A stretch of 27,902 bases of DNA from Armatimonadota bacterium (GCA_043746125.1 JAYTRQ010000641.1:1-27902), one strand, 5' to 3'. Shown: positions 3,006-27,112, numbered from the stretch's first letter. Notes: generated from the sequence alone by a model not told the origin. Made by a program: numbers and translations.

Positions 3006-4244
3006 CTAATCTAAGGCCAGCAGCAGGTTCAGATCGAAGTCGGACCTCCGTATGTCGGCTTCCAGGCCGTCCACGGGCGGCTTGACGCGAGGCAGTTTTT
3101 CCAGGACGTCGTACAGGTCGGCGGGCGGGTTGACGGAGATCACCATGACGACCTGGTTCTTGTCGTCCAAGTAAAGCTCGTCGAAACGGTTGGAAACCGG
3201 GTCGCCGTGAAACAGGCCGCCCTTGCCGCCCTGCGGGTCCCCAAACAGCTCAAAGTGAATGTCCAGTTCATCGGAAAAAAAGTTTGGGACATGGTCGTAG
3301 GCGACGTGCTGCCCGGCCATGTTCGCGCCTGCGATCTGGCCGTGCCAAAGGGCATTGTTCCAGTGTTCCACGCGCCACTGCTTTCCCATGACGGGGTCCT
3401 GGAACCCGGCCACGTCTCCGGCAGCGTAGACGTCAGGGGCGTCGGCTTCCAGATACTCGTTGACCAGGACGCCGTTCTTCTTCACGTCCACGGCCAGGCC
3501 CGCCGCCTGGGCGAACTCCAGATTAGGCTTGACGCCGACGGCCACGAGAACGACGTCGCCGTCAACGATCAGTCCCGACTTGGTCTTGACGCCAGTGGGC
3601 GTAATTTCAGTGACTTCATCGCCTAAAATCACTTCGGCCCCGGCCGCTTCCAGCTTCCCGCGCAGGAACGCGCCATATTCCGGCGAGGCGAACTTGCTCC
3701 ACAGGTGCCCGGTCGGTTCAATGATGGTCGCCTGCCCGCCTTTGGTCACGAAGTCGGCAGCAACCTCGACGCCGATGTAGCCGCCGCCGACCAGCACGAT
3801 CTTCTGGCCCAAGTGCGCCCGGAGGGCGTCGCTGTCCTCCCACGTCCGCAGGGTCCGCACGTTTGGCCCGTTCACGCCGGGGACGTCCAGCACCTTGGGA
3901 GACGAACCGGTGGCGACCAGCAGCTTTTCGTAAGCGACGGTGTCGCCGTTGTCCAGAGTGACGGTCTTCGCCTGCGTGTCCGCGCCGGTCGCTTTCGTGC
4001 CCGAAAGTAGAGTCACTTTATTGTCGTCATACCAGGCCGGCGACTGGATCGGCAGCACGTCTTCAGCTTTCGCTTCGCCGCGCAGGTACTCTTTGGAGAG
4101 TGGTGGGCGGTGGTAGGGCGGGTGAGACTCAGAGCCGATCAGCAGGATCGCGCCGTTTGGGTCGTACTGGCGGATGGTCTCGGCGGCCGTGGCGGAGGCG
4201 AGGCCGCCACCGACCAGAACGTATCGCGCGGAGTGGTGGGACAT
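3006..4244 (-). CDS. FAD/NAD(P)-dependent oxidoreductase, ferredoxin-reductase-like (Pyr_redox_2)
   Basis: GGGLAS FAD motif, PPYHRPPLSKEYL, ATGS, GGGYIGVE NAD motif, VYAAGDVA, RVEHW..A, PNFFSD. AAGGA RBS. Confidence 0.9.
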   Translation of the reverse strand: MSHHSARYVLVGGGLASATAAETIRQYDPNGAILLIGSESHPPYHRPPLSKEYLRGEAKAEDVLPIQSPAWYDDNKVTLLSGTKATGADTQAKTVTLDNGDTVAYEKLLVATGSSPKVLDVPGVNGPNVRTLRTWEDSDALRAHLGQKIVLVGGGYIGVEVAADFVTKGGQATIIEPTGHLWSKFASPEYGAFLRGKLEAAGAEVILGDEVTEITPTGVKTKSGLIVDGDVVLVAVGVKPNLEFAQAAGLAVDVKKNGVLVNEYLEADAPDVYAAGDVAGFQDPVMGKQWRVEHWNNALWHGQIAGANMAGQHVAYDHVPNFFSDELDIHFELFGDPQGGKGGLFHGDPVSNRFDELYLDDKNQVVMVISVNPPADLYDVLEKLPRVKPPVDGLEADIRRSDFDLNLLLALD

Positions 4245-4463
4245 AAGAGGTGTCCTTTCTCAAAGACAGGGAGTTAGCACTCAATTCTTACCCCACACCG
4301 GGGTGGGTCAACCCTTTCGCCGCGTGCCCTCGGCCACCGCCGCGCCTTCCAACTCGTCCCACAAAGTCACTTTCCCTTTTTGGCTTCATCGCCTCCGGTG
4401 GTGTGTCTATCCGCTTCTTAACGTTCTCTTAACATTCAGCCGTCGCCTGCGAAGGACTCATAA

Positions 4464-7400
4464 TCACGGTCCTAACGTCAGGCGGCCCCAATTTCTGGGT
4501 TCCATCATCAGCTCAAACACGGCGTCATCCACGATGCCCGTGTGCTGGTCGCTCCAATACGAGCGCAGGCGCGTCCGCTGGCCCGCCGGGTCGCCGAACG
4601 TCACGCCGAAGTCGCCCGCCAGGGACAGGCCCGGTCGGGGCGTGAGGCCGAGGCTAGACAGGGGGATGGCGGCTTCCACGGTGTAGCCGTCGCCGCGTTT
4701 GACGACCGCGACTCTTGCCTGGGGGACGACCGCGACGTAGTCCATCGGGTAGTTCGTGACCACGCCCGAGTGGAACGCGAACGGCTTTTTAAGCGCGGAC
4801 ACTTTGCGGTAGAGCACGGCCGTGTCTTTGCCGCCGAACGGCCCGACCGAGAGGCGGAGGTCGTCCGGCCCGGCCTCGCCTCGCGACGTGTCCGCAGTGG
4901 CGTCGGTCCCCATCTGGAAGTCCACGGTGTCACCGCCGAGGTACAAGTTCTGCGGCGTGGTTGCGCCGTTGACCCAGGGCGTGTTATCGCGGACGTCCCA
5001 GGCCAAATACAGGGTTTGCGCGTCATAAGCGGCAGCGGACGTTGCCGACGAGTCGTCGCTCTTTTGGTAGTGGACCGTGTTGGCTCCGGCGAAGTCGTGG
5101 GCGAGGTCGCCGGTGAACGTGGGTGTCAAACGCGCGACGGTGAGCAGATGCGGGCCGCTGACGACCTGCTGCTCCTGGGCCTGAAAGCCGGCCGCCTGGG
5201 CGATGTCGTCCCGGCTGAGGGTGAGCCGCCCGCCGGGGATGGCTTTCGTCGTTTCCAGGCCGGTCACTTCCAGGTTCCAGTAGCCGGTCTTGCCGGCCTG
5301 GACGTACAGCTTGCCGTCCGCGCCCTGTGCGATGGAGCCGCCGAAGTCCTCGCCGCCCAGGCCGGGCGGGGCATTGCTCACGTCCGCGCCGGGGGTAGTG
5401 TCGGCAGGGAACTGGTATTTTAATGGGTCCGGCTGGAACAGGCGGGTCAAATAGAACCCGTCATTGGTCAGCACATGCCACTCGCTGACGTTGGTGGGGA
5501 TGACCCAGATTCCGCCGATGGGGGCGGGTAGAGTCGCCGCCCCGACGATGTCGTACGCGCCCCGGATCAGGCCCGGCTCGGGCGGCGTGGCGTTGTGGGA
5601 CCCGTGCACGCCGACGTAGTCGTTCGGGTAGGCCCACAAGCGTAGGCCGGAGGCGATGTCGTAGCAGTCGAACGTGCTTCGGGCGGCCTGATACGCGCCG
5701 TTGTAGAGGATCAACTTGCCGTCGGCCGACCCGACGCCCGTGCCCGCTCCCATGCCGCCCTGCTCGCCCGCATTGGGCATCTTGATGGGGTGGGCAAGAT
5801 CGTAGAGCGGTGCGCCGGCCGGGGTGAAGCCGGCGACTCTGTACTGGCCGTAGCCGCTGTACAGGGTCAGATCCGGTGTCACGGACAGGTACCAGCCGCC
5901 AACTTTCAGGACGCCGGGTACGGTCGTGACTTCATTGGGCTGTTCCAGACCGTCGCCGTTGGCGTCGGCCCAGTAGCGCGTCGTATTGCCTTTGGTATCG
6001 TACGCAAAGCGGCTCCGCAGGGCGTACCGGGCGTCGCCCAGCCGCTCGAATATCTGCATGGGGCCATTCGTGAAGCCGGAGCCGTTCGCGACGACTAAAT
6101 ACCGCCGCCCGTTCGCGCCGGTCCCGAACAGGGAATTGTTCATGCCGTCCCGCGTGATAACAGCCAGGCAGCGGGCGCGGCCCGTGGTGGGGTCCAGCCG
6201 CCACTCGCAGCCCGATCCGACCATGACGTCCGGGTCGCGTGGGTTGATCGCCCCACCGGGTGCGCCGTAGTGGGTGGAGCCGAAGAACTCCTTGACGAAC
6301 CGGCCCGATTGGGTATCCCAGACCGAGACGCGCTTGGGGAAGTCGTCGGTTTCGGCCACCCACAGCTTGCTGTCCCGGTCCACGGCCAGGCCGCTGATGA
6401 AGCGCAGGCCGTCCGGCTGCCACGGGCCGAGCAGTGTGCGACCGCCGGGCCGGCCGATGGTGCGGAGGAACTTGCCCCCCGCGTCGTAGACCCGGACCTG
6501 GTTATCGGGATCGCCGACGCCGACGTAGACCCGGCCCTGCGCGTCTACGGTCAGGCCGGCGGCATGGGCGAGGCCCGAGACCAGTGTCTTCGACGTCCCC
6601 GAATTGGGGTCCAAAGACAGCACGGACGCCCCGCCGGAAATGACCAGAAGGCGGCCATCGGCCGTCGCTTTCATCCGCCCCGGCGCGGGGGCGGACAGCG
6701 TTTTAACGAACGCGCCGGTCTTCGCGTCTAGAACGAGAAGGCCGTTCTGCTTTAGCAGCGATAGGAATACGTGGCCGTCCTTCACTTCCAGGCCGTTGAT
6801 TTGATCCGGCTTGTCCGCCGCAATAGGCCACAGGTCGAGCGGGTTGACGTCGGCGGGCGCGTCGGGCGCGTTTGTCGCGCCCCAGGGGAGGTAGGCGCCG
6901 TCTTTGGCGTTCAGGTGGTACAGGTCTTTGGGGCCGTTCAGGACGTACGCGATGCCCCCGCTCACGGCGATCTGGTCCGCCCCGGAGATGCCCCCGCGCG
7001 TGTTCTTCCAGACGACGTCCCCGCCGAGGTCCGTCGCCAGCAGGGCCGCCCCGGCCTCCGCAAGCGTCCAGCCCAGGAAGACCCGGTCGCCCTCAGAGGC
7101 GCAGGCGGCGGGTTGGCCGTGGTCGCCGCCCCAGTTCGTGTCCGGCCCGTTGTCCCAGGGGGCCTTGCCGCCGTTGTCGGCGAAGCCGCGCCAGTGCAGG
7201 CCGATCGGGCCGTGGGTCAGGGCGCTCCAGGTGTACGCCCCGGCGGGGACCGGCTGCCCCGGCTCATGCGCGTTCGGCGTAGTCAGCCCGTCCCACAGGA
7301 CGGTATGCCTGCCCCTGGCGTAGAACGCGCTGCGCAGGAGGTGGCAGACGACCTGCCCCTGGGCGTTCTTGACGTTCAGCGAGACGTAGCCGTCTTGAGC

Positions 7401-8303
7401 CAGGGCGAACGTAACCGGCTTGAATCCGGGCAGGGTTGGGGCCAGCCTCGGCGCGGTCAGACTTGACCAATCGGCGATTGGCACGCCGCTTTGGAGCCGC
7501 ACGGGGAACTCGCGCCCGCCGGCGACGCGAACGGGGCGCGGGACCAGCCTGCCTTTGGGCGCCAGGGTGGCGACGCCCCATTCGTTTTTCGACATGAACG
7601 TGAAGACGCGGTCAATGGTCGGGAGCGGTTTGAAGACGTCCTTGACGGAGAGCCGCCCCTTCCCCGGCGTGGTGAAGTTCGGCTCGAAAGTGATCTGGAA
7701 CTGGTCGCCCGTTCTGAGCGGCAGCCCGTTTTTGGTCAGCAGGCTCCAGGGGATGGCGACCTCCTGGACGTACCCGCTGCCGTCCGTATTGACCGTAAAC
7801 GCCTGCTGTCCGCCCTGCGTTTTGGCGTCTTTGAGTTCCGGCTTCGCGCCCTCATAGTCCATGTTCACGACGTCGCTGCCGCTGCTGCCGCGCCACGCCG
7901 TCACGTTGCAGGTGAGCTGGTCGCCCGTGCCGGGGTGGGTGACCGTGCGGATCTGAAGGCTGTCCCCGGCGAAGCCGTAGTTTGCGATGGTCTGGCCGGG
8001 GTTGTTGAGCGGCGTCTTGTCGTTGAACCGGGCCAGCACATACAGGTTCTTACTGTCATAGTTGGCGCAGAGCCAGACCGCGTAATCGTCGCGCTGGGCT
8101 TCGACATTGTCGGAGGCGAAGACGCTGCCGGAGAGGTCCCAGTCAGTGTACTTTCCGTCCACGACGATGGGGCCGGGGGCGGGCGGGACTTGCAGCCCGA
8201 TGTTTTCAGACGGAGTAGCCTGGACACGGTTCACCGGGCCGAGCGCCATAACAACCAGGGCGGCAAGCCCGAGGCGGGTAATGTTGTTCACGTTTTGGTT
8301 CAT
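4464..8303 (-). CDS. Large secreted protein (1279 aa): signal peptide, CBM9/DOMON-like, FlgD-Ig, NHL-like beta-propeller, CBM9/DOMON-like
   Basis: Start placed at ATG 8303 (MNQNVNNITRLGLAALVVMALGPVNRVQA), 8 nt after the upstream stop, rather than TTG 8336. Motifs: IVVDGKYTDWD...YDSKNLYV; DGYVSLNVKNAQGQVV...VLWDG; GLTVDAQGRVYV; AYDAQTLYLAWDVRD...EAAIPLSSLG. Confidence 0.8.
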   Translation of the reverse strand: MNQNVNNITRLGLAALVVMALGPVNRVQATPSENIGLQVPPAPGPIVVDGKYTDWDLSGSVFASDNVEAQRDDYAVWLCANYDSKNLYVLARFNDKTPLNNPGQTIANYGFAGDSLQIRTVTHPGTGDQLTCNVTAWRGSSGSDVVNMDYEGAKPELKDAKTQGGQQAFTVNTDGSGYVQEVAIPWSLLTKNGLPLRTGDQFQITFEPNFTTPGKGRLSVKDVFKPLPTIDRVFTFMSKNEWGVATLAPKGRLVPRPVRVAGGREFPVRLQSGVPIADWSSLTAPRLAPTLPGFKPVTFALAQDGYVSLNVKNAQGQVVCHLLRSAFYARGRHTVLWDGLTTPNAHEPGQPVPAGAYTWSALTHGPIGLHWRGFADNGGKAPWDNGPDTNWGGDHGQPAACASEGDRVFLGWTLAEAGAALLATDLGGDVVWKNTRGGISGADQIAVSGGIAYVLNGPKDLYHLNAKDGAYLPWGATNAPDAPADVNPLDLWPIAADKPDQINGLEVKDGHVFLSLLKQNGLLVLDAKTGAFVKTLSAPAPGRMKATADGRLLVISGGASVLSLDPNSGTSKTLVSGLAHAAGLTVDAQGRVYVGVGDPDNQVRVYDAGGKFLRTIGRPGGRTLLGPWQPDGLRFISGLAVDRDSKLWVAETDDFPKRVSVWDTQSGRFVKEFFGSTHYGAPGGAINPRDPDVMVGSGCEWRLDPTTGRARCLAVITRDGMNNSLFGTGANGRRYLVVANGSGFTNGPMQIFERLGDARYALRSRFAYDTKGNTTRYWADANGDGLEQPNEVTTVPGVLKVGGWYLSVTPDLTLYSGYGQYRVAGFTPAGAPLYDLAHPIKMPNAGEQGGMGAGTGVGSADGKLILYNGAYQAARSTFDCYDIASGLRLWAYPNDYVGVHGSHNATPPEPGLIRGAYDIVGAATLPAPIGGIWVIPTNVSEWHVLTNDGFYLTRLFQPDPLKYQFPADTTPGADVSNAPPGLGGEDFGGSIAQGADGKLYVQAGKTGYWNLEVTGLETTKAIPGGRLTLSRDDIAQAAGFQAQEQQVVSGPHLLTVARLTPTFTGDLAHDFAGANTVHYQKSDDSSATSAAAYDAQTLYLAWDVRDNTPWVNGATTPQNLYLGGDTVDFQMGTDATADTSRGEAGPDDLRLSVGPFGGKDTAVLYRKVSALKKPFAFHSGVVTNYPMDYVAVVPQARVAVVKRGDGYTVEAAIPLSSLGLTPRPGLSLAGDFGVTFGDPAGQRTRLRSYWSDQHTGIVDDAVFELMMEPRNWGRLTLGP

Positions 8304-8311
8304 TGATTTAT

Positions 8312-11300
8312 CTATTTGAAAGCCCAGGCTCCCCAAAGCTGGGGCGTCAGTTCGGCCTCGCTTGGGACGTCCGAAACCAGGCCCGTCGCCTTGTTATGCC
8401 AGTAGACGCGCTGGAGGGTTTGGAAGCCGTTGCCGCGCAGCAGCCCGACGTCGCCGTGCAGCGTCTGGCCCGGCGTGGCGCTCAGGCCGAGCAGGCTCAG
8501 GGGCACGGAGTATTCGTAGTTCCCTGCTCCGTCGCCTGCGAGAGTGATCTGGGCACTGACGTCCTCGACCCGCTCGAAGCGCACGGTGCGCTGCGGAGAC
8601 GTGAATTCGAACGGGGACGTCCTGCCCGGTGCCGAACGGGGCTGGTAGAGCATGGCAGCGGTTTTGCCAGCCACCTGGGTTACCAGCAGGCGCTCGCCGC
8701 CGGGGACGGCATCCAGCATCAGGTCCAGCGCCCCGCCGGTTTTGAAGAGCAGGGGCGGACTGCCGCCCGCATTCTTCAGCAGACCGGCGTCGCCCGTCTT
8801 GAAGGCGGCGTACAGGCGGTCCCCCGAAATGGACAGCGCGGCCTGTGTTTCGGCCTCGGAATGGCCCCAGTCGCCCTTCTGGTCCGTCCAAGTGTCCAGG
8901 GTCACCCAACGGGCGTCTGCCCAGTCGTCCAGCTTGCCGTCCACCGTCGGGGCGGCAGGTCGCAGCGCAATGGCGAGAGGGCCTCGGTCGGCGGACGCGG
9001 CGGCCTGCCGCTGGGCCTCACTCTGGACGAAGTAGGCGCGGGCCTGGGTCAGGAGGTCCGGTGTGACGTCCAGGGGTGCGTCGGGCAGCCGCTGGATGCC
9101 GCTCAGGCCGTCCAGGCGGAGGACGTTGCCGCCGTCGCCGCCGCCCACGAGGTAGACATCGCCGTCAGCGGTCTGGGTGAGCGACGGCCAGAAATTCTCT
9201 TCCTGGAGGCTCAGGTCGTTGACGAGCATGTCCTGCTCGGCCTTGGGGGCGGACCAGGACGCGAGCCGGCTGTCCCGGAAGAGCGTGGCGACGAACAGGC
9301 CGTCCGTGGTGAACAGGTAGACGTTGCCCTTGTTGCCGTTGATCGCCCACAGCTCGCCCGCGTCGGAACCTTTCGGCCGGATCAGGCCGCCCAGGAGGCG
9401 CGTGGTGCCGATCAGCTCGCCCGGATGGTCCGGCAGGGGGGCGCCGTGGCTGGGATGCAGGCCGGGCCACAGGCTGGGGTAGGTCCAGGTCGGGACGCCG
9501 TCTTTGACTCCGGACAGGGACGACTGCGCGGTGTAAGGGGCGGGCGGCACGGTGAGCACGGTCCATCCGCCGGCCCCGGCCAGAGCCTGGCCGCCGCCGC
9601 TGGTCTGCGGGGTGCGGGTGCCTTCGGCCAGGGTCAGGCCCCCGCGGAGGTCGTAGCGGGGCGCCCCGCTGGCCGAGATCCCGGAAGGCGGGAACCGCAC
9701 GGCCCTGCCGTCGAGGTAGGCCGCCACGAAAGACAGGTCCGGCATGACGGTGATCCCGCTCGCCTGGCCTTGGAGGAACGTGACTTCGTCCGGCTCGACC
9801 TTGCCATCCCCGTTCGCGTCCGACCAGGCGAACATCATCCTTCCCCCCGGCCTCCAGCCGGCCGGCAGGCGCGCCCGGAACGCGGCGGCTTTCGGCGTCA
9901 AGGCGGCCGGCGGGGCCGCATCCCAGTTGAAGTCTATGGTCGGGTCCAGGGCGGTCCCCGCGAAGTCCTTCAAGTCGGTCCCGTTGTAGTAGCGGCCCGT
10001 CAGCCCGCCGGGCCGGGCGGCTTTGGCGGAGGGGTATAGGGCCGTGGCAGGAATAACCGCCTTCGGCGTGCCCGGCCCGGCCCAAAGCAGCCGCGCCGTC
10101 GCCCCGCCCGCGCCCTGGAAGTATTCCATCGTGACGTCATAGCGCTGGCCGGCCTGCAAGACGGTAGTCCCCCTGTCTTCGGTCGTGCCATGCCCGGTCC
10201 AGTCGTCGACGAGGGGCTTGCCGTTGACCCAGAGCCGCACGCCGTCGTCGGAGAGCGTCGTGAAGGCGTAGGACCCCGACGCGGGCGCTTTGATCTGGCC
10301 GGTCCAGCGCACGGAGTAGTTCTGCGTCCCCCGGAACAGGCCGGAGACGAGAGGCCAGGAGTCGGCATCGCCCAGGGCAGCCACGGGCCGGGCGACGCCG
10401 CCCTTCAGGAGCCAGAGGGCGGCGTTGTCGGCGGCATTCGTGGGGCTGACGTTGTAGCAGTCCGTCAGGTACTCACGGCCCCCGAACGTCAGGGCCGTTT
10501 CGGGGGCGCGGCTCTTGTAGTAGGACGGCAGTTTGAGGGGGTCCAGGTCCGCCTGGTAGTAGTTGGCGACCGGGCGATTGGATCCGTCCTTCCAATCAAT
10601 GGACAATTCCAGGCCGCTGTAGAAAAAGTGTGTCTTGTCCGCCGGGTCCAGCGCCCCGCCGCCGCCGTACTCCATCGGGCCGTAGAACGCCTTGACTAGT
10701 CCGCCCGTTCTGGCGTCCCAGACGCTGACTCTTTTCGGCACGAAGTCGGTCTCGGCTACCCAGAGCCGGCCCAGGCTGTCCAGGGCGAGGCCGTCGGGCT
10801 GGTGCATCTGGAGGGGGTCGTAGGGTCCGAGTTTGGGGCGGCCCGCCTTGCCGATCACGCGCAGGAGAGCGCCCTTTGGGCTGAAGACTTTGACCCGATT
10901 GTCGTCGCCCCGGTCGCTGACGTAAACGTTCCCGCCCGCGTCGAGCGTGAGGTTCCGGGGGTCTTGCAGGCCGCTGGAGACCATGACCGTGGGCGCAGGC
11001 ATCTTCCGCTTGTCCGGGCCGACCGGGCAGCGGAGCAGGCGGGTCCCCGAGAGGACGAGAAGCCGCCCTTGCGCGTCGAACGCCACTCCGCGCGGGTCCG
11101 GCATCGGGGCCGTCCTGAGAATCTTGTGCGCCCGCGCGTCCACCCACAGGAGTTGGTTCATCTTGGGCAGGCTGGCGACCAGGAGGCCGTTGCGCACGGC
11201 CAGCCCGCTCAGGCCGATGTGGGCGTTGTCGGGAAATACGTAGCGGTAGTCTTTCCCTTCCAACTCGAGCGTCTTCTGACCCGACGGCAGCAGGCCGGCG

Positions 11301-12133
11301 TAGGGGGCGTTCGGCACCAGAAGCGGCCGGTCGTCGCCCCGGCCCATCCGGCCGTCGCGCGGTGGGGCGGCCATACGGTCGCGGGTCAGCAGTTCGGCCA
11401 GGCGCAGCTCGGGCTTGTCCCCGTCGTAGCCGCCCCCCGCCCAGGCTGAACCGGCGTAAGCGTAGACATCTCCCACCCGCTTCGGGCCGCCGTCACGGGC
11501 GAGGTGCGTCGCGCCGGTCCAGACGCCGCCGACCCACATCTGCCCGCGCAGTTTGCGCCCGTCCAGGTCCAGCCAGGCCAGGCCCGATCCTCCCTCGGTG
11601 ACCGCGCTGCATACCAGCACTTCCCCGCCCGTCGGACTGGGGGCCGGGCCGCGCCTGGCGTCCTCGGCGGGCACGAACAGGACTCCGCTCGGGGGCGTGT
11701 GGTTTGCGAGCCATTCGCTGCTCGGGTCGGGCGTCGCCCAAGAGGGCCGGCCCGGATTGTAGACAGTGAACTGGTAGCGCAAGTCTATCGGCGGCCGGAC
11801 CAGCCCGCGCACCCGGTACGCGCCCGCCGGGACCAGCCGGCCGGGGACGTCATAGACGCCGTGGGCGGCGGCGTCGGGGTTACGCCCCGTGTCGTCCAGC
11901 CCGTCCCAGTAAGCCGTGTTCGCCCCGGCGGGGTAAGGCGTCTCGCTGACCAGATTACGCACCCGCTTGCCCTGGGCGTCGTCAATGACAAGGGTGACGA
12001 AGCCGGCCTTTGACAGCGTGAACGGGATCGCGATGGGCGCGTGCGGGGCCGGGCCGGCGGCGCGGGCCGGGGCGGGGAGGCAACCGGAGAGAACGGCGGT
12101 GAACATAGCGATCCAGGGTTGTGGTTTCTGCAT
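8312..12133 (-). CDS. Large secreted protein (1273 aa): signal peptide, FlgD-Ig, NHL-like beta-propeller with PA14 insert, CBM9/DOMON-like
   Basis: FTLSKAGFVTLVIDDAQGKRVRNL...YWDG (FlgD-Ig); DPRGVAFDAQGRL, NLTLDAGGNVYVSD, GLALDSLGRLWVAE (NHL-like); SVRWTG...SDDGVRL...EYFQ (PA14); PTVDGKLDDW (CBM9-like). Confidence 0.85.
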   Translation of the reverse strand: MQKPQPWIAMFTAVLSGCLPAPARAAGPAPHAPIAIPFTLSKAGFVTLVIDDAQGKRVRNLVSETPYPAGANTAYWDGLDDTGRNPDAAAHGVYDVPGRLVPAGAYRVRGLVRPPIDLRYQFTVYNPGRPSWATPDPSSEWLANHTPPSGVLFVPAEDARRGPAPSPTGGEVLVCSAVTEGGSGLAWLDLDGRKLRGQMWVGGVWTGATHLARDGGPKRVGDVYAYAGSAWAGGGYDGDKPELRLAELLTRDRMAAPPRDGRMGRGDDRPLLVPNAPYAGLLPSGQKTLELEGKDYRYVFPDNAHIGLSGLAVRNGLLVASLPKMNQLLWVDARAHKILRTAPMPDPRGVAFDAQGRLLVLSGTRLLRCPVGPDKRKMPAPTVMVSSGLQDPRNLTLDAGGNVYVSDRGDDNRVKVFSPKGALLRVIGKAGRPKLGPYDPLQMHQPDGLALDSLGRLWVAETDFVPKRVSVWDARTGGLVKAFYGPMEYGGGGALDPADKTHFFYSGLELSIDWKDGSNRPVANYYQADLDPLKLPSYYKSRAPETALTFGGREYLTDCYNVSPTNAADNAALWLLKGGVARPVAALGDADSWPLVSGLFRGTQNYSVRWTGQIKAPASGSYAFTTLSDDGVRLWVNGKPLVDDWTGHGTTEDRGTTVLQAGQRYDVTMEYFQGAGGATARLLWAGPGTPKAVIPATALYPSAKAARPGGLTGRYYNGTDLKDFAGTALDPTIDFNWDAAPPAALTPKAAAFRARLPAGWRPGGRMMFAWSDANGDGKVEPDEVTFLQGQASGITVMPDLSFVAAYLDGRAVRFPPSGISASGAPRYDLRGGLTLAEGTRTPQTSGGGQALAGAGGWTVLTVPPAPYTAQSSLSGVKDGVPTWTYPSLWPGLHPSHGAPLPDHPGELIGTTRLLGGLIRPKGSDAGELWAINGNKGNVYLFTTDGLFVATLFRDSRLASWSAPKAEQDMLVNDLSLQEENFWPSLTQTADGDVYLVGGGDGGNVLRLDGLSGIQRLPDAPLDVTPDLLTQARAYFVQSEAQRQAAASADRGPLAIALRPAAPTVDGKLDDWADARWVTLDTWTDQKGDWGHSEAETQAALSISGDRLYAAFKTGDAGLLKNAGGSPPLLFKTGGALDLMLDAVPGGERLLVTQVAGKTAAMLYQPRSAPGRTSPFEFTSPQRTVRFERVEDVSAQITLAGDGAGNYEYSVPLSLLGLSATPGQTLHGDVGLLRGNGFQTLQRVYWHNKATGLVSDVPSEAELTPQLWGAWAFK

Positions 12134-12136
12134 AGT

Positions 12137-13274
12137 TAGGACTTTCGCTTAGACTGGTGCGTAGGCAGTAATTGTCGGCTGCCGTAACTGCGCTCGTAAG
12201 AAGTCGCGCAGCAGGTTGGCATGAGCGGCGTACAACGTCGTGCCTACCTTCCGCGCATGAACCTTGAGCGTTAGCCATGCCAAGTAGCAGCAGGCTAGGT
12301 GGCTGCGCTGGGCGCGGGCGTTGCGGCACTGGCACTTCTCGGCCCCAACGAGTTATTTTAGCTCACGATGCAACTGCTCACGATGCAACTGCTCGATCTG
12401 CCAGCGCATGGCGTTCTCGTCTTGAACGTCGCCCGAGGTGAGCCGAGCCTGGGGCTTGCCGCTGTCGTCGCGGTTTGTGATGACCCACTCAATGCCGCCG
12501 TTCGTGGCGACTATCTTGAAGAGGCGCACGAGGAAAGGTAACTCCTGGAGCTTGACGAGACGCCCGTGCTGGAGGCTGTCCTGGTCCCAGTCCAGCGCGT
12601 CTAGATGCATGTAGCCTTTGTTCTTGTCTTTCTTGCCAGCCTGGTACTGCTCCTTGCTCGTGCTGACCAGGCGGTTGCTCTTGAGGCTTTATTAGGGTGA
12701 GCGTGGTTACGAACACCATCCCCAGGCGGCGGATCACCTTCAGGTTGTCCACCGAGGCGTACCAGGAGTCGAACAGGACCATGTTGGCTTTGATCCGCTT
12801 GTCGCTCTTGGCGCGGATCAGCATCTCCCGGAAGTGCTCGTTCTTGGTCTTGCCGTCCGTCTCAGGAGAATAGACGCGGAAGTCAATCGGGAAGAAGTTG
12901 TCGGCCTTGCCGCTCGTGTGCAACAGGTTGACCACGCCGATGCCGCGCACCAGGCCGCCCTCGGCCCCGCTGTATTGGAGCTTGACCAACTCGATCTTGC
13001 GCGAGTATTGCTTGTTCTGCACGCTATCATCCACGACGAGATAGCTGTCGGGGCTGTCTTGAAGCAGCGGTGAGACGACTTCCCACAGGCGGCGGGGTGT
13101 GAGCTTCTCGCGGCGCAGGTAGTCGCTGACAGTGTCGTGGCTGGTCGCTGCCTCGCCCTCCAGATGGTCGGCCAGGTAGGTGCAGGTGTAGTTGACTGGG
13201 GTGGCGACCAGGTATTCGATGTACTGCTACTTGGTCATAAGTGCTTGTACGCAAACGAGCGAGCGAAAGTCCTA
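12137..13274 (-). mobile_element. IS701-family insertion sequence (degenerate)
   Basis: 13-bp terminal inverted repeats TAGGACTTTCGCT / AGCGAAAGTCCTA, flanked by a 5-bp direct repeat ATAGT (12132-12136 and 13275-13279), enclosing a DDE transposase remnant. Confidence 0.85.
12149..13238 (-). pseudogene. IS701-family DDE transposase pseudogene
   Basis: MTK*QYIEYL...SHDTVSDYL...YLVVDDSV...VLFDSWYAS...RWQIEQLHRE..K*LVGAEKCQCR. TAG at codon 4, a 16-bp frameshifting insertion at 12683-12701, a 15-bp tandem duplication at 12362-12391, and an internal TAA at 12353-12355. Confidence 0.85.
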
Positions 13275-13314
13275 ATAGTGTGTCGATGAGGCGGCTGTCA
13301 GGCTTGACTAAGAT

Positions 13315-13347
13315 GAGGTTCGGGGGACGCAGTTTCCCCCGAACCTC
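13315..13347. repeat. Intergenic 12-bp palindrome (REP-like or mRNA-stabilising stem)
   Basis: GAGGTTCGGGGG-N9-CCCCCGAACCTC, with no U-tract on either side. Confidence 0.55.
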
Positions 13348-13392
13348 GTACTGCTGCCGTCGCGGCTTGAGTGCGTCCTGATTCACGAGGCT

Positions 13393-14238
13393 CTATTTGA
13401 CGCTCATCGTCAGAGCGTCAGTACTGTAGCCCGTGCCGGCGGCCGTGCTGTCGGCGGCGGGCGGGCTGGTCTCGGACGCGGCGTTAAATCCGCCGCTGAC
13501 TTGAATGGGGCGGAGCCATTTGACGTGTCCGTCGGCGGCCAGCCAGTTCAAGCCGTCGGTATGATAGGGTTTGGCCGGGTTCCCACTGCCGTAATTGCTG
13601 CAAGAGGTCGTGGCCGAGGTGATGTTATCCATCACGCCCATGTACTGGGCGTTGACAGCCCCGTTGTTATAACACTTGCCGTTGGCAAATTCGCCGCCGC
13701 TCTTACCGGTGGCCGTTTGCAGGTTGCCGCTGGCGTCGGCGTAGGCATTGGGATCCAGAACGCCTCCGGCATTTTGAGCCTCGAACAGCAGGACCGTCTT
13801 GGCGGGAGAGTTGAAGCTAGAGAGTGCGGTCATAGTCCCGCCGCCATTCGGCTGGTTGTTGCTGGCATCGGGGACATTCAGGTTGTAGACGTAGGAAATG
13901 CCGCCCGAACTGTCGTCAGAGCACTTGTAGACGCCTGCCGCTTTTACGTAGGGGTAAACGAATGCCGCCCATCCGAAGCCGTAGTTGGTGACGCTGCAAC
14001 ACCAGCTCGCGCCCTGGGGGTATTTCTCGTCGGCATCCTGCACATACTGGGTGAAGGCGAGGCCGAGCTGCTTGAGATTGCTCTGGCAACTCGCGCGGCG
14101 GGCGTTCTCACGCACTTTCTGAAAGACGGGAAACAAAATCGCCGCGAGAATAGCGATGATCGCGATGACGACGAGCAGTTCGATCAGCGTGAAGCCTCGC
14201 TTCTGAGACTTCAGGGGGCTAAGTATGCAAATGGACAT
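13393..14238 (-). CDS. Prepilin-type N-terminal cleavage/methylation protein, DUF1559 family, with H-X9-DG motif
   Basis: [27 protein letters not shown] (type IV prepilin motif), [16 protein letters not shown], and C-terminal [16 protein letters not shown] (H-X9-DG). AAGGAG RBS. Confidence 0.92.
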
Positions 14239-14293
14239 GATGGTGTTCTCCTTCGAGATCTGGCTGACCCTGTCCTCTAATACAGGCTACTAA

Positions 14294-14419
14294 TGGACGA
14301 ACCCGGTAGAACCGATAGGTACAGGTTCTTTTGTCCGCGCAGGCGGGCACTTGCTTTGCTGAAGACCCGGATTTCCAATCCGGGGGAAGATGGCCTATCG
14401 GTTCTACCGGGTTCGTCCA
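14294..14419. mobile_element. Putative 126-bp MITE
   Basis: Perfect 26-bp terminal inverted repeats TGGACGAACCCGGTAGAACCGATAGG / CCTATCGGTTCTACCGGGTTCGTCCA with TG...CA ends, flanked by imperfect CTAA/CTAG. No coding capacity. Confidence 0.5.
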
Positions 14420-14424
14420 CTAGA

Positions 14425-14454
14425 ACAGGTGTATTACTAGTATAAAGCACCTGT
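14425..14454. promoter_or_regulatory. Candidate operator overlapping the pilin-gene promoter
   Basis: ACAGGTG-N16-CACCTGT inverted repeat spanning the -10 box. ACAGGTGTAT (14425-14434) recurs exactly at 15713-15722. Confidence 0.55.
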
Positions 14455-14467
14455 GCGCTTTTGTCAA
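14439..14467 (-). promoter_or_regulatory. Sigma70-type promoter of the DUF1559 operon
   Basis: Minus strand TTGACA-N17-TATACT. Confidence 0.8.
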
Positions 14468-14474
14468 GCGTTTC

Positions 14475-15677
14475 TCACAAATAATTTCGGAGGCGGGTGG
14501 ATTGTCGGGGGATCAGGTGCGAGCGGAGGCAGACCTGCATGCTTGTGGTCTCGCCGCCGAGCGCACGCAGCAGCAGACGCGCGGCCTCAGCGCCCAGGGC
14601 TTCCAGCGGCGGGCGGACGCTGGTCAGCCCCAGCAAGCTGGACTCGGCCAGATCGTCGAAGCCGATCAGGCCGTAGTCGCGCCCCGCCTCCTTGCCCGCT
14701 TCGGCCGCGCCCTGGAGGAAGCTGAGGGCAACGATGTCGTTCGCGCCGATGATACCGACGCCGTCCGCCCAGCCCGCGCCGAGGACGGGGCCGGCCAGCG
14801 CCCGGCCGGCCATCCCCTGATCCAAGTCCCATGGGGGAGTCGGGTGGTCTGGCCGGTAGACGCGCAGGGCGTCGTCCGGAAGGCCTGCGTGCCGGACGGC
14901 GTTCCGTGCGCCGGTCAGGCGCTCCTCAGCCCAAGCCGCGGTGAACGGGAGCATGAAAATCAGACGAGCGTGGCCGCGCTCGATCAGGTGCTGGGCGGCC
15001 AGATAGCCAGCCGACACCTGATCGTAGTAGACGTGAGGCAGGGGCCGGTCGAGTGGGTCGGCAGTCACGAAAACGAGTGGCGTCCGCAGGCCCGCCGTGC
15101 CCGAAAGGGCGTTGGCGACCATCTCCGGCGGGTCATAGAGCAGGAGAACGGCCAGGGCATCCACGCCGCTCTCCCGCAGGGCGGTCATGGCGTCGGCCGG
15201 GGGGACGTTGCGCTTGTTCGGGCCGTACCGGTTGAACAGGCGCGTGGATCCGCCCGCCCCGCCGAAGGTGCGCTCCAGGGACGACAGGATGACCCGCTCC
15301 CAGTCGTGGTGGAGCGAGTCGTGGTGGAGCGGGCCTGGCCGGCCAAAAGGGGAAGACAACCCGGTGACAATGCCCAGGGTGGCCGAGCCGGGGGCTGGGC
15401 TAGGGCGGGGCTGGTCCTGGGAAGCCGCCAGGCCGACCACGGTGCCCTGGCGTGGCAGGGCCTTCAGGGTGCCATCGGCCAGCAGGCCAGAGACGGCTTG
15501 CTGAAGCGTACCCAGTTCGACTCCGTATTCGTCGGCCAGCGTCCGGCGAGAAGGCAGCAGCGCCCCCGGCAGCCAGCGGCCGGCGCGGATCTGTGCGCGT
15601 AAGTCAGCGGCGATGCGCTGGTAGACGTAGCGTGTCAGGTCCAGGCGCGGGTCTTGAAGTTTGTGGGGTAAGGTCAT
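14475..15677 (-). CDS. GntR-wHTH / LacI-type sugar-binding hybrid transcriptional regulator
   Basis: N-terminal YQRIAADLRAQIRAG...LLPSRRTLADEYGV...TLQQAV..L..DG.L....RQGT (GntR). C-terminal VYYDQVSAGYLAAQHL...NDIVA...LIGFDD...LTSVRPP (periplasmic-binding-protein fold). Confidence 0.9.
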   Translation of the reverse strand: MTLPHKLQDPRLDLTRYVYQRIAADLRAQIRAGRWLPGALLPSRRTLADEYGVELGTLQQAVSGLLADGTLKALPRQGTVVGLAASQDQPRPSPAPGSATLGIVTGLSSPFGRPGPLHHDSLHHDWERVILSSLERTFGGAGGSTRLFNRYGPNKRNVPPADAMTALRESGVDALAVLLLYDPPEMVANALSGTAGLRTPLVFVTADPLDRPLPHVYYDQVSAGYLAAQHLIERGHARLIFMLPFTAAWAEERLTGARNAVRHAGLPDDALRVYRPDHPTPPWDLDQGMAGRALAGPVLGAGWADGVGIIGANDIVALSFLQGAAEAGKEAGRDYGLIGFDDLAESSLLGLTSVRPPLEALGAEAARLLLRALGGETTSMQVCLRSHLIPRQSTRLRNYL

Positions 15678-15710
15678 GGGGCGATCCAGGACGGAGACGT
15701 GTCAAATCTG

Positions 15711-15722
15711 ATACAGGTGTAT
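15711..15722. promoter_or_regulatory. Candidate autoregulatory operator
   Basis: Palindrome ATACA-GG-TGTAT at the predicted transcription start of the regulator gene. Confidence 0.55.
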
Positions 15723-15729
15723 GGTACGC

Positions 15730-15758
15730 ATTATAGGCCTTATTGGTGTTTTTGTCAA
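15730..15758 (-). promoter_or_regulatory. Sigma70-type promoter of the regulator gene
   Basis: Minus strand perfect consensus TTGACA-N17-TATAAT. Confidence 0.85.
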
Positions 15759-15803
15759 GGCTCGCGGGAGTTGATAAAGCCGGCCGTCTGGGAATGTATA
15801 CTC

Positions 15804-16310
15804 ATGATTTCCTCTTCTCTCCCGAAAGACGCCCATTGCTCCTACTGCGGGCGTCGCTTCCCGGACGGCTCACCCTGGCCGCGCCGTTGTCCCCAGTGTC
15901 ACAACGTCACATACCGGAACCCATTGCCTGTCTCCGTGGTTCTGCTGCCCGTGGGGGACGGCCTGATGCTGGTCCGACGCACGAACGAGCCGGGGCGCGG
16001 CGAGCTGGGCCTGCCAGGCGGCTTTATCGAGTGGGGCGAAACCTGGCGGGCGGCGGGGGCACGTGAACTGGGCGAGGAGACGGGCACCGTCGTCGAGGCC
16101 TCTGGGCTGCAGCTATTCGACGCGGTCAGTGCGCCGGACGGGACGCTGCTGGTGTTTGGCCTGGCCCCCTCCATGTCTGAGGCCGATTTGCCCCCATTCG
16201 TGCCGACGAACGAGACGTCAGAAATCGTGATCAGCCGGGAGCTACTAGAATTGGCGTTCTCGACGCACACGGAGATGATGGCACGTTATTTTGAGGAGAA
16301 GCACCGATGA
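15804..16310 (+). CDS. NUDIX hydrolase with N-terminal zinc ribbon
   Basis: HCSYCG...RCPQC zinc ribbon, YRNP, and Nudix box GLPGGFIEWGETWRAAGARELGEETG. ATG 15804 preferred, because the longer ORF start at 15699 overlaps the divergent promoter. Confidence 0.88.
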   Translation: MISSSLPKDAHCSYCGRRFPDGSPWPRRCPQCHNVTYRNPLPVSVVLLPVGDGLMLVRRTNEPGRGELGLPGGFIEWGETWRAAGARELGEETGTVVEASGLQLFDAVSAPDGTLLVFGLAPSMSEADLPPFVPTNETSEIVISRELLELAFSTHTEMMARYFEEKHR

Positions 16311-16856: not shown

Positions 16857-18713
16857 GTGAGCGTTATGACGCGGGGCGGGCCGCCCCTCGGCCCTGAAAA
16901 GCCATTAAAGCCGGATACCATCCGGCGGATCGTGCGGACGTTCGCGCCGTACCGAACGCAGGTCGTCGGGATCGCAGTCGCTGTTCTTGCCTCGGTGGGG
17001 CTGGGCCTGCTGCCACCGTTCCTGCTGCGGGCGATCATCAACCAGGGGCTTTTGGCGCGGGACATGGAGGTCGTCACGCGCGACACGCTGCTGACGCTAG
17101 GCGCGACATTAGCGGCGACCGGCCTGTCCCTGCTGTACGGCTATCTGAGTATCCAGGTCGGCCAGCGGATCATGCGGGACCTGCGGAACCAGTTGTACGA
17201 CCACTTGCAGGGGATGGCGCTCAAGTTCTTCGCGGATACCCGCACGGGGGAGATCCAGTCCCGGCTCGCCAATGACGTCGGCGGCGTCCAGTCTGTTCTC
17301 AGTGACACGGCCGCCAGCCTTCTGTCCAACGTCACGACCGTCTTGTCCACGCTTGTGGTCATGGTCATCATGGACTGGCGACTGACCTTGCTTTCGGTCG
17401 GCATCCTGCCCCTGTTTGCCTTTGTCGGGAGGCAGGTGGGCGAGGCCGCGCGAGGCGTCCGGACGACGGTGCAGACCAGTCTCGCGAGCCTGAGCGCGAC
17501 CATGCAGGAGACGCTATCGGTGTCGGGCGTGCTGCTGACCAAGACAAGCGGCCGGCGTAGCCTGGGTCTGGCGAAGTTCGCGGCCGAGAACGAGTCCCTG
17601 ACGGACGCCCAGGTCAAGCAGGCAATGATCTTCCGCGCCTTCTTCAACCTGATCGGCCTGACGTTCTCCCTGACGCCTGTTCTGGTCTACTGGCTGGCCG
17701 CTGACCTGTTCGTGTCGCAGGGTGACCATCACCTGAGCCTGGGCACCATCGTCGCCTTCACGACCCTGCAAGTTCGCCTCTTCTTCCCCTTGACGGGCCT
17801 CCTGAACGTCCAGGTGGAGGTGACGAGTGCCCTGGCCCTGTTTGACCGCATCTTTGAATATTTAGACTTAAAGCAGGATATCGTGGACGCGCCCGATGCC
17901 GTCGCTCTGTCCCCCGCCGAGATACGCGGCGCGGTCACCTTCGAGCACGTCTCGTTCCGTTATGATGAGTCTCAGGCTTCACCGACACTGGATGAGATCA
18001 CATTCGAGGCTGCGCCGGGGCAGTTGATCGCTCTGGTCGGCCATTCGGGGGCGGGCAAGACGACACTAACATATCTCATCCCGCGTCTATACGACGCCGA
18101 TTTAGGCCGGGTGACGATTGACGGCCGGGACATCCGCAGCATTCAGTTACAGTCCTTGGGCGCGGCCATCGGGGTCGTCACGCAGGAGACGTACCTGGTG
18201 CATGACACGATCAAAGCTAACCTGCGCTACGGCAATCCGGACGCGACCGATGCCGATCTAATCGCGGCGGCCAAAGCTGCCGCCATCCACGACCACATCG
18301 CGGGCCTCCCCGCCGGCTACGACACCGTCGTCGGCGAACGCGGCTATAAGCTGTCCGGCGGCGAGAAGCAGCGTATCGCCATCGCCCGCGCCATCCTCAA
18401 AGACCCGCGCATTCTGATTTTGGACGAGGCAACGTCCGCCCTGGACACCCAATCCGAGCGCCTGATCCAGTCCGCCCTGACGCCCCTGATGGCGGGCCGG
18501 ACGACATTCGCGATTGCCCACCGATTATCTACCATCCTGGCGGCCGACCTGATTTTGGTTCTGGTGGGGGGGCGGATCGTGGAACGAGGGACGCATTCGG
18601 GGCTTCTGGCGGCGAATGGGGCCTATGCGCGGCTATATGCGGCGCAGTTCATAGAGGGTGGTCAGGAGGCAGGAGAACGGGACGGGGTGGGACGGGAACT
18701 GGCGAGGGGATAA
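16857..18713 (+). CDS. ABC exporter, fused permease and ATPase (MsbA/MdlA-like)
   Basis: Hydrophobic N-terminal half, Walker A GHSGAGKT, signature LSGGEKQR, Walker B ILILDEATSALD, IAHRLST. Confidence 0.93.
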   Translation: MSVMTRGGPPLGPEKPLKPDTIRRIVRTFAPYRTQVVGIAVAVLASVGLGLLPPFLLRAIINQGLLARDMEVVTRDTLLTLGATLAATGLSLLYGYLSIQVGQRIMRDLRNQLYDHLQGMALKFFADTRTGEIQSRLANDVGGVQSVLSDTAASLLSNVTTVLSTLVVMVIMDWRLTLLSVGILPLFAFVGRQVGEAARGVRTTVQTSLASLSATMQETLSVSGVLLTKTSGRRSLGLAKFAAENESLTDAQVKQAMIFRAFFNLIGLTFSLTPVLVYWLAADLFVSQGDHHLSLGTIVAFTTLQVRLFFPLTGLLNVQVEVTSALALFDRIFEYLDLKQDIVDAPDAVALSPAEIRGAVTFEHVSFRYDESQASPTLDEITFEAAPGQLIALVGHSGAGKTTLTYLIPRLYDADLGRVTIDGRDIRSIQLQSLGAAIGVVTQETYLVHDTIKANLRYGNPDATDADLIAAAKAAAIHDHIAGLPAGYDTVVGERGYKLSGGEKQRIAIARAILKDPRILILDEATSALDTQSERLIQSALTPLMAGRTTFAIAHRLSTILAADLILVLVGGRIVERGTHSGLLAANGAYARLYAAQFIEGGQEAGERDGVGRELARG

Positions 18714-27100: not shown

Positions 27101-27112
27101 GTCCTGCCGTAG
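24101..27112 (+). CDS. Secreted 1003-aa protein: several Fn3-like repeats, a CBM-like beta-sandwich and an unassigned C-terminal domain
   Basis: GGAG RBS; signal peptide ending PAVA; Fn3-like W...YNVYR.G...Y.V.AV patterns (about five); CBM-like VYVDALQNGWQPWGW...WQAMYLHH...LWVHGG. Confidence 0.8.
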   Translation: MKFLLPRAWMLLILALSLVTPTPAVAQTASQSSQSEVPQSLHAYGKLLPVGTNVLVNWHGVPQAQSYNVYRNGQLLNGVAHTYFFDYGAAAGETHTYTVTAVGAWGESAPSASVTARAPVGGGQVVYVDALQNGWQPWGWADLDYANTFPRMGGSHSVRVKAGPWQAMYLHHAPFDTTSYTVVSLWVHGGKTGGQRLSLTALRSGTPQASVTLDPLPARVWRQVTVPLSTLGVAGVSDMDGLWVQDASGTAQPAFYVDRICLGTAAASPTLIPAPQRLSVTPQWVTSCPSCPGMAMPNMVLSWAPVQGVPGYVVCRNGTPVAPSVTQTGWTDMTVVSDHTYAYTVAALGPAGPGTASAPVSATAPNPPSSSAALTAPVNLGVHGTWLAGQTDVLSWSPVPAAASYNVYQYGTLIAQNVTSTAYTVPSDVFSGGLTYAVTAVDGLGMETLPSAIAASQGQCDPAQDPTWTPAPPQAPTNVVATPEWNAGVPRIHLTWYGWDTSYTYNVYRDGVKVASGLWGLNYFDTTVAPGETHSYAVSGVNLPWNTSVEGPQSASVTATALAGAPNAAPGVVQITGLKPNDDGVLVSFAAVPGAVDYRAYSMAKPNVVKYSGGGLSIEMNGLNQAGATLVVEAVDKLGPFQTMDGMAGPGAMVMGSTHSAINGQGDPSDVPNVLAASVPFPVVLQPTVLAGSQVFFDNFRDENPLTLQPSPDITGNPDGSYDSYGQPNNYWEQANDKWRIRNYVGDTDYTKVFFMGNHFMDTLYDGGTARKGGPMHNNNSSLVMMPRATADISGGGVLHVTFEVDAHFDSRRWCDLVVAPAGDTLLNPGAKGGGHPTFSGTDTAFRWRIEYQNSIPEMVNLSATAPYVTVENALVPINGQAWDVARSSARVDPYQGTPQANGTLRDLDKRHRFDLYLSQTHFRIMEQGTVAWEGDIPAALAMPVGPYQVYFVHQLYHTGNDRPEQVDWNPENTYWYNDRPYSDERHWDNMGQSVLPDFPVLP

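Follow-up and report, generated by a model that had tools for sequence, protein, structure and literature searches.

A contig of 27,902 nt (C641; GCA_043746125.1 JAYTRQ010000641.1:1-27902; this whole stretch is called the window below) from a metagenome-assembled genome (MAG; G000, 3.8 Mb in 831 contigs, 75% complete) carries between positions 4,464 and 15,758 four minus-strand genes, which encode a GntR-LacI hybrid regulator, a prepilin-type protein of the DUF1559 family (hereafter the pilin) and two giant secreted proteins, big1 and big2. The conserved core of this locus, as judged by comparing it with related loci, is the regulator together with two giant secreted double-propeller proteins that have carbohydrate-binding-type modules, and the pilin is exchangeable. 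Support is good for the regulatory circuit and for the former operon, which ran promoter/operator, pilin, hairpin, big1, big2. We tentatively read the whole as a sugar-regulated glycan-processing locus in which the pilin would be the subunit of an assembled fibre, with a variable head that binds the substrate while the giants bind, and possibly cut, the glycan.

To judge from protein similarity, the source is an uncultured Armatimonadota bacterium, kin of Capsulimonadaceae MAGs (a housekeeping oxidoreductase of the window shares 73-83% identity with proteins from MAGs that bear the labels Armatimonadota, Armatimonadales or Capsulimonadaceae). The strain's DNA also occurs in metagenomes of sediment and in those of glaciers, the latter from an independent study, and no RNA run was found to contain it. 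The features of the locus are as follows (coordinates of the window, in the order of transcription):

15730-15758, minus strand: regulator promoter, TTGACA, 17-nt spacer, TATAAT (12 of 12 consensus positions)
15711-15722, minus strand: candidate operator ATACA-CC-TGTAT at the regulator promoter, 7 nt past the -10 box
14475-15677, minus strand: regulator, 400 amino acids (aa); GntR winged helix 54 bits, LacI-type Peripla_BP_3 90 bits (Pfam)
14439-14467, minus strand: second promoter, before the pilin, TTGACA, 17 nt, TATACT (11 of 12); begins 8 nt past the regulator stop
14425-14454, minus strand: candidate operator at the pilin promoter, spacer ACAGGTG (14448-14454) plus ATACACCTGT (14425-14434), half-sites on either side of the -10 box
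14290-14423, minus strand: hairpin in the 5' leader of the pilin, 30-bp stem, -80 kcal/mol, z = -10
13393-14238, minus strand: DUF1559 / H-X9-DG prepilin-type protein, 281 aa; PF07596 63.8 bits (cut-off 23.3), N_methyl 39 bits
13315-13347, minus strand: GC-rich hairpin, 13 bp, 46 nt past the pilin stop, without a strong T tract
12137-13274, minus strand: decayed IS701-family insertion sequence (IS), 1,138 bp, between pilin and big1, on the big1 start codon
8312-12133, minus strand: big1, 1273 aa; PA14 88 bits, NHL, weak FlgD_ig 24.6 bits (cut-off 27)
4464-8303 (8336 from a TTG start), minus strand: big2, 1279 aa from the ATG; CBM9_1 47 bits, weak FlgD_ig

Conserved core and loci with and without the pilin

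Two metagenome contigs (L132 and L133) carry orthologs of the regulator (73% identity; 84% over the N-terminal part) and retain the divergent NUDIX gene, the regulator promoter and, at that promoter, an identical 12-mer operator. In both, the regulator stop is immediately followed by a TATAAT/ACCTGTAT promoter and then by big1 (in L133 also by big2); neither a pilin nor an IS is present in these two orthologous loci. Nucleotide homology between them and the window ends at 14496 and resumes at 12045, and the intervening 2.45-kb segment, with the hairpin repeat, the pilin, the short hairpin and the IS, is therefore peculiar to the window. At L072, which has the big1-big2 pair closest to that of the window (76.5% nucleotide identity over exactly 4471-12075), there is neither the regulator nor a pilin, and a search upstream of big1 there for pilin remnants and the pilin-big1 spacer found none. 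The full order recurs in a distant, independent metagenome contig (L136), in which a regulator (41% identity), a DUF1559 gene (41%), a big1-type gene (~60%) and a big2-type gene (26%) are co-oriented, and further pairings of a regulator with a giant-family gene were found at C771 (a paralogous locus of the same genome), G014 and L134. A pilin is thus present in two of the four loci with the regulator-big1-big2 layout. Because orthologous loci lack it, the pilin is best regarded as a facultative add-on to the core, the giants probably work without a cis-encoded pilin, and an obligate complex of pilin and giants is unlikely.

An earlier reading made from the sequence alone (the sequence-only reading) had described the locus as a sugar-regulated unit of four co-oriented genes. 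The orientation was borne out with domains assigned by Pfam, as was the regulator, a hybrid of an N-terminal GntR winged helix (helix-turn-helix) and a C-terminal Peripla_BP_3 (LacI-type) sensor; the reported absence of SusC, SusD and solute-binding proteins also stands (no such Pfam matches among the window genes). That reading had given the giants CBM9-like, PA14 and FlgD-Ig modules: their length of about 1,280 aa was confirmed and both have a signal peptide, but PA14 is limited to big1 and absent from big2, a Pfam match to CBM9 (carbohydrate-binding module family 9) is limited to big2 (PF06452, 47 bits, residues 1091-1288), and FlgD_ig is weak in both.

From the N-terminus, big1 consists of a signal peptide with a possible lipobox (LSGC), an Ig-like domain, an NHL beta-propeller, an inserted PA14 domain, a second beta-rich propeller region, a long helix and a CBM9-like C-terminal sandwich (structure model of residues 26-1225, predicted local distance difference test (pLDDT) 89.4). 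Its C-terminus has no Pfam CBM9 match, aligns with the C-terminus of big2 and forms a beta sandwich in the model. The order in big2, the ATG of which lies 8 nt past the big1 stop, is signal peptide, N-terminal CBM9-like module, FlgD-Ig-like domain, propellers and C-terminal CBM9_1. Hundreds of full-length homologs of big1 were found at 50-74% identity, often beside esterases or glycosidases and, by source name, in Armatimonadota, Bacteroidota (Pedobacter), Planctomycetota, Verrucomicrobiota and Bacillota. The big1 orthologs of L132 (1878-2680) and L133 (~3860-4640) have an extra N-terminal domain of ~270 aa without a Pfam or NCBIfam match; in L133 the protein also contains an F5/8-type-C insert, and the L136 homolog is without the PA14 insert. 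A big2 ortholog with 78-80% identity (L128; G014:C1:3117356-3121136) has no big1 adjacent and is split over four frames, either as a pseudogene or through a long-read assembly error.

For the wider association of regulator and pilin, 40 relatives of the same order were surveyed, and 28 loci with this type of regulator could be assessed (the surveyed genomes are kin, and the loci are therefore not independent). A co-oriented DUF1559 gene lies directly downstream of the regulator in 16 of these 28 loci and is adjacent in another arrangement in two more. The genes after those pilins mostly encode secreted proteins: a glycoside hydrolase (GH) family 78 rhamnosidase, GH99/GH71-like proteins, GH26 with CBM4_9, CBM6/CBM35, GH16 and FG-GAP/ASPIC. 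A recurring unit under the control of a sugar regulator, as the sequence-only reading had proposed, is therefore supported by these counts, by the GH and CBM genes that mostly come next, and by the full order in L136. A locus of galactomannan type (L138; European Nucleotide Archive contig, 8001-14812) has a divergent GH31 gene, then regulator, DUF1559, GH36 melibiase, GH26 and a second DUF1559 gene, with a MalK-like ABC ATPase close by.

The neighbourhood of the locus in the window is also rich in glycan-related exoproteins. Two further large secreted proteins are encoded at 20974-23757 and 24101-27112, one being a Sortilin-Vps10/BNR repeat protein of 927 aa and the other a protein of 1003 aa with a rhamnogalacturonan-lyase beta-sheet domain.

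Promoters, candidate operator and insertion element

Only two sigma-70-like promoters scored in the 11.6 kb, one ahead of the regulator and one ahead of the pilin; the latter sits where L132 and L133 have their big1 promoter. The exact 10-mer ATACACCTGT follows both, and these are its only two copies in the window. The promoter-overlapping motif that the sequence-only reading had assigned to the locus as a whole is accordingly present at the regulator and pilin promoters (after the -10 box), and no copy lies close to big1 or big2 in the window. Genome-wide, the 10-mer has 7 copies against 2.8 expected; this locus and C771 account for four of these. In C771, the -10 region of the regulator promoter overlaps with one copy, and a second copy is found 37 nt past a perfect TTGACA-17-TATAAT promoter that faces a divergent big2-like gene. 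The motif was absent from 127 other loci compared; L132 and L133, which are not among these, carry the 12-mer.

The operator was deduced from the motif that four promoters of this genome share with two promoters of orthologous loci, and the ATACACCTGTAT sites at the regulator and pilin promoters are candidate binding sites of the regulator. Since such a site stands before the giant gene of C771, the giants would be part of the regulon, and this site is the best evidence, at the level of sequence, that regulator, pilin and giants may form one regulon. The leader of this operator-controlled giant gene also contains a long inverted repeat, different from the one in the window.

The long hairpin in the pilin leader has as its core a dispersed repeat, of which the genome has ~8 diverged copies (similar ones lie on contigs C456, C337, C467, C492, C748, C567 and C213), and no DUF1559 gene adjoins any of these. 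With a perfect 30-bp inverted repeat round a conserved core, it resembles a miniature inverted-repeat transposable element (MITE) or an element of the repetitive extragenic palindromic (REP) type; Rfam gave no match for it or for anything else in 12000-16000. The short hairpin after the pilin stop is possibly an attenuator or an mRNA stabiliser.

The four genes are there, but a remnant of an IS701-family element, overlooked in the sequence-only reading, splits pilin from big1, and the four genes therefore no longer form one uninterrupted operon. The element has a DDE transposase, broken over several frames and considered decayed because the fragment scores below the NF049921 cut-off (140 bits against 250), as well as 13-bp terminal inverted repeats (TAGGACTTTCGCT / AGCGAAAGTCCTA). 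The target duplication is 5 bp long (ATAGT, at 12132-12136 and 13275-13279) and overlaps the big1 start codon; the element accordingly entered an existing pilin-big1 junction by simple insertion. Before the insertion, ~116 nt containing the short hairpin separated the pilin stop from the big1 start. Independent contigs of one metagenome run confirmed both junctions, and an IS-free allele was not seen in four metagenome runs, although contigs cannot prove the absence of an allele. The L072 pair, for its part, lies between an IS1-type gene and one for a DDE_3 transposase (8841-9404, 17594-17851), and these transposases together with the IS701 element of the window suggest that the two-gene block sits in transposon-rich, rearranging regions.

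The DUF1559 protein and its possible roles

The leader of the pilin (KRG/FTLIELLVV, with Glu+5) is a class III signal peptide, with the Gly end, Phe+1 and Glu+5, and TIGR02532 scores 36.8 bits. The H-X9-DG motif is visible and conserved (H226...D236-G237). The earlier assignment to the DUF1559/H-X9-DG prepilins is therefore upheld by PF07596 and the N-methylation motif; for H-X9-DG, the visible motif stands beside a TIGR04294 score of 16.5 bits, below the cut-off of 19. Seven residues are invariant in 139 diverse relatives (Phe+1, Glu+5, Cys51, Cys106, Glu153, Asp236 and His238), and residues ~155-225 are variable among relatives and of low confidence in the structure model. This model (AlphaFold2, pLDDT 81.6) has a helix at 18-68 and the alpha-beta roll of pilins, and its best 16 VIA-align matches are all pilins or pseudopilins (PilA4, Z 5.1; EpsG, Z 4.8; ComP; PulG, Z 3.9). 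The Pfam name SBP_bac_10 had made a solute-binding protein a candidate; on the modelled pilin fold we reject this. A sequence search of the PDB with the pilin profile gave matches limited to the N-terminal helix of pilins, and Foldseek of the model against the PDB gave nothing at E <= 0.001. The N-terminal 60 residues also match the GspG model TIGR01710 (36 bits against a cut-off of 88.85, model positions 1-60 only), which does not make the protein a GspG; no gsp genes were found among the window proteins.

Machinery for assembly is present elsewhere, as G000 and four relatives encode a prepilin peptidase (Peptidase_A24), 2-6 secretins and at least 4-5 full-length GspE/PilB-type ATPases per genome. 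On contig C303 of G000, ~4 kb separate the gene of the prepilin peptidase (516-824) from that of a secretin (4615-5118), and the two probably belong to a single pilus or secretion cluster. The DUF1559 family comprises ~254,000 clusters at 50% identity (E <= 0.001), many of which match by the shared pilin helix alone; at least 34 paralogs are encoded in G000, and the complete related genome G021 (4.2 Mb) has 49 matches. The closest relatives of the window pilin do not exceed ~56% identity. At 13975-14361 the depth of metagenome contigs leaps ~500-fold, and dozens of contigs split off at 14193-14198. The DNA for the N-terminal helix is conserved at the nucleotide level over very many paralogs and organisms. 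The papers found to mention DUF1559 give no function for the family, and a literature search for H-X9-DG returned only an unrelated mussel study.

The reading that we favour, though with reserve, would work as follows. The regulator would repress both promoters until a sugar effector binds it; pilin, big1 and big2 would formerly have been made as one transcript, with the hairpin giving more pilin than giants, and the IS would now lower or uncouple expression of the giants. The prepilin peptidase of the genome would cleave the pilin, and one of the several type IV pilus or type II secretion-type machines encoded there would polymerise it; the variable middle part of the pilin would bind a polysaccharide or the particle that carries it, and the cell would in this way retain the glycan as the giants bind it and perhaps cut it. 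Glu+5 is required for filament assembly in known pilins. We favour a fibre subunit because the assembly residues are invariant, because the pilin comes first in the operon behind a consensus promoter, because its head diversifies, and because polysaccharide-binding fibres have been documented in Planctomycetes (Boedeker et al. 2017, PMC5394234).

Several results weigh against this reading. The loci without a pilin, L132, L133 and L072, show that the giants can probably do without one encoded beside them. The association also looks weaker from the side of the pilin: in G021, LacI-type regulators account for 4 of the 38 upstream neighbours of DUF1559 genes and GH-like genes for at least 6 of the 38 downstream neighbours, and the remaining neighbours are housekeeping genes. 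The same pilin-less loci and neighbour counts do not support the proposal of the sequence-only reading that a pilin takes the place of the SusC/SusD pair as a core component; in this strong form it does not fit the orthologous loci that lack a pilin. No catalytic domain was found in big1 or big2 by Pfam and NCBIfam, and the big1 model, when compared by fold, matched no enzyme family but only generic tandem propellers (teneurin, EML, the BT4663 sensor and PorZ; the BT4663 match is a heparin-sensing periplasmic domain). The structural matches of the pilin to known pilins are weak (Z of 5.1 or less), and the IS may silence big1 and big2.

Alternatively, the DUF1559 protein might serve a type II secretion-type machine as a pseudopilin dedicated to its operon, which is co-induced with the large exoproteins, raises or tunes their passage through the secretin and has no contact with the glycan. 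The model matches EpsG and PulG about as well as true pilins, the N-terminal 60 residues match the GspG model, the downstream genes nearly always encode proteins of 400-1300 aa with signal peptides that need to pass the outer membrane, and there are several secretins and GspE-type ATPases per genome. Nevertheless, we regard such an export role as unlikely: the GspG match is far below cut-off and restricted to the helix, the pilin gene lies outside any gsp cluster, orthologous loci that have no pilin in cis still export these giants, most of the G021 paralogs do not adjoin exoprotein genes, and strong diversification of the head would be unexpected in a periplasmic piston. That the pilin is a mere passenger, i.e., a high-turnover DUF1559 gene that landed with the repeat and the IS in the 2.45-kb segment behind a strong promoter and has no functional tie to the giants, would agree with the broken homology to L132 and L133 (14496-12045, a segment made up of the dispersed hairpin repeat, pilin and IS), with the unrelated neighbours of most DUF1559 genes in G021, and with the L136 pilin, which at 41% identity is no closer to the window pilin than unlinked relatives are (~50%). 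It is hard to reconcile, however, with a DUF1559 gene directly after 16 of the 28 assessable regulators, where a random neighbour would be expected at ~1-2% (estimated from 49 matches in a 4.2-Mb genome), or with a pilin promoter that keeps the candidate operator of the regulator on both sides of its -10 box, and we give it little credence as well.

The leader might, finally, be an inner-membrane anchor and nothing else, with the head as a periplasmic oligosaccharide binder or sensor. The Pfam identifier of PF07596 (SBP_bac_10) and the lack of a sugar importer or solute-binding protein in the unit point that way, but the model has the alpha-beta roll of pilins and not the fold of periplasmic binding proteins, its top 16 structural matches are all pilins or pseudopilins, and Glu+5 is invariant, all of which makes this very improbable. 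The fibre reading could also be extended, in that DUF1559 pilins, each specific for its substrate and exchangeable for one another, would build a retractile fibre like a type IV pilus that catches a polysaccharide and reels it through a secretin into the periplasm. We consider this decidedly doubtful; if true, it would be the Armatimonadota and PVC (Planctomycetota, Verrucomicrobiota and Chlamydiota) counterpart of SusC/SusD, each glycan operon plugging in its own subunit.

DUF1559 is among the largest protein families without a function, and we know of no capture or uptake device in polysaccharide-consuming bacteria outside Bacteroidota. The locus offers a readable circuit, with one candidate operator on regulator, pilin and giant-gene promoters, and a natural series of pilin presence and absence among otherwise orthologous loci. 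Caution is called for, as most Armatimonadota members of DUF1559 lie outside glycan loci, and we limit the claim to the pilin as an accessory and not an equivalent of SusC/SusD.

Comparison with known systems

The polysaccharide utilization loci (PULs) of Bacteroidota, defined by SusC/SusD, likewise have a substrate-sensing regulator beside secreted glycan-binding or glycan-degrading proteins and exist in many variously equipped copies per genome. In contrast, the locus described here has neither SusC/SusD nor a transporter, and its pilin is optional. In Pedobacter, one homolog of big1 has a SusC/SusD pair at a distance of 6.5 kb.

In Planctomycetes, dextran is bound by pili-like fibres at crateriform structures (Boedeker et al. 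2017, PMC5394234). The likeness is that of a polysaccharide-binding fibre in a DUF1559-rich lineage without SusC/SusD. No such fibres have been described for Armatimonadota in the literature searched.

With type IV pilins and type II secretion pseudopilins (PilA4 of Thermus, 6xxd; EpsG, 4lw9; PulG, 5wda) the pilin shares the class III leader, Glu+5 and, in its predicted structure, a long helix that leads into a small beta sheet, as well as a conserved disulfide pair. It differs in being about twice as long, with a large variable insert, in lying outside pil/gsp clusters, and in a sequence likeness that is confined to the helix.

Both giants are full-length members of a group of secreted FlgD-Ig/NHL/CBM9 proteins of ~1,100-1,700 aa (some annotated as 'PA14 domain-containing protein'), which occur in tandem pairs and have esterase or glycosidase neighbours. 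Even close relatives in this group differ by the insertion or loss of PA14, F5/8-type-C and N-terminal domains, i.e., domains are apparently swapped in and out within the giant family.

The cassette of regulator, pilin and enzyme is not described in the literature searched. New here are this cassette in Armatimonadota, the candidate operator common to regulator, pilin and giant promoters, the IS insertion, the presence or absence of the pilin, and the position of most G021 members outside glycan loci. The known DUF1559/H-X9-DG family (PF07596, TIGR04294 with TIGR02532; Planctomycetota, Lentisphaerota and Verrucomicrobiota) agrees with the window pilin in a PF07596 domain and an N-methylation motif above cut-off, a visible H-X9-DG motif, tens of paralogs per genome and fast-evolving heads. 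What sets the present case apart is its occurrence in Armatimonadota, a candidate operator that can be read, and a pilin that is gained or lost among orthologous loci.

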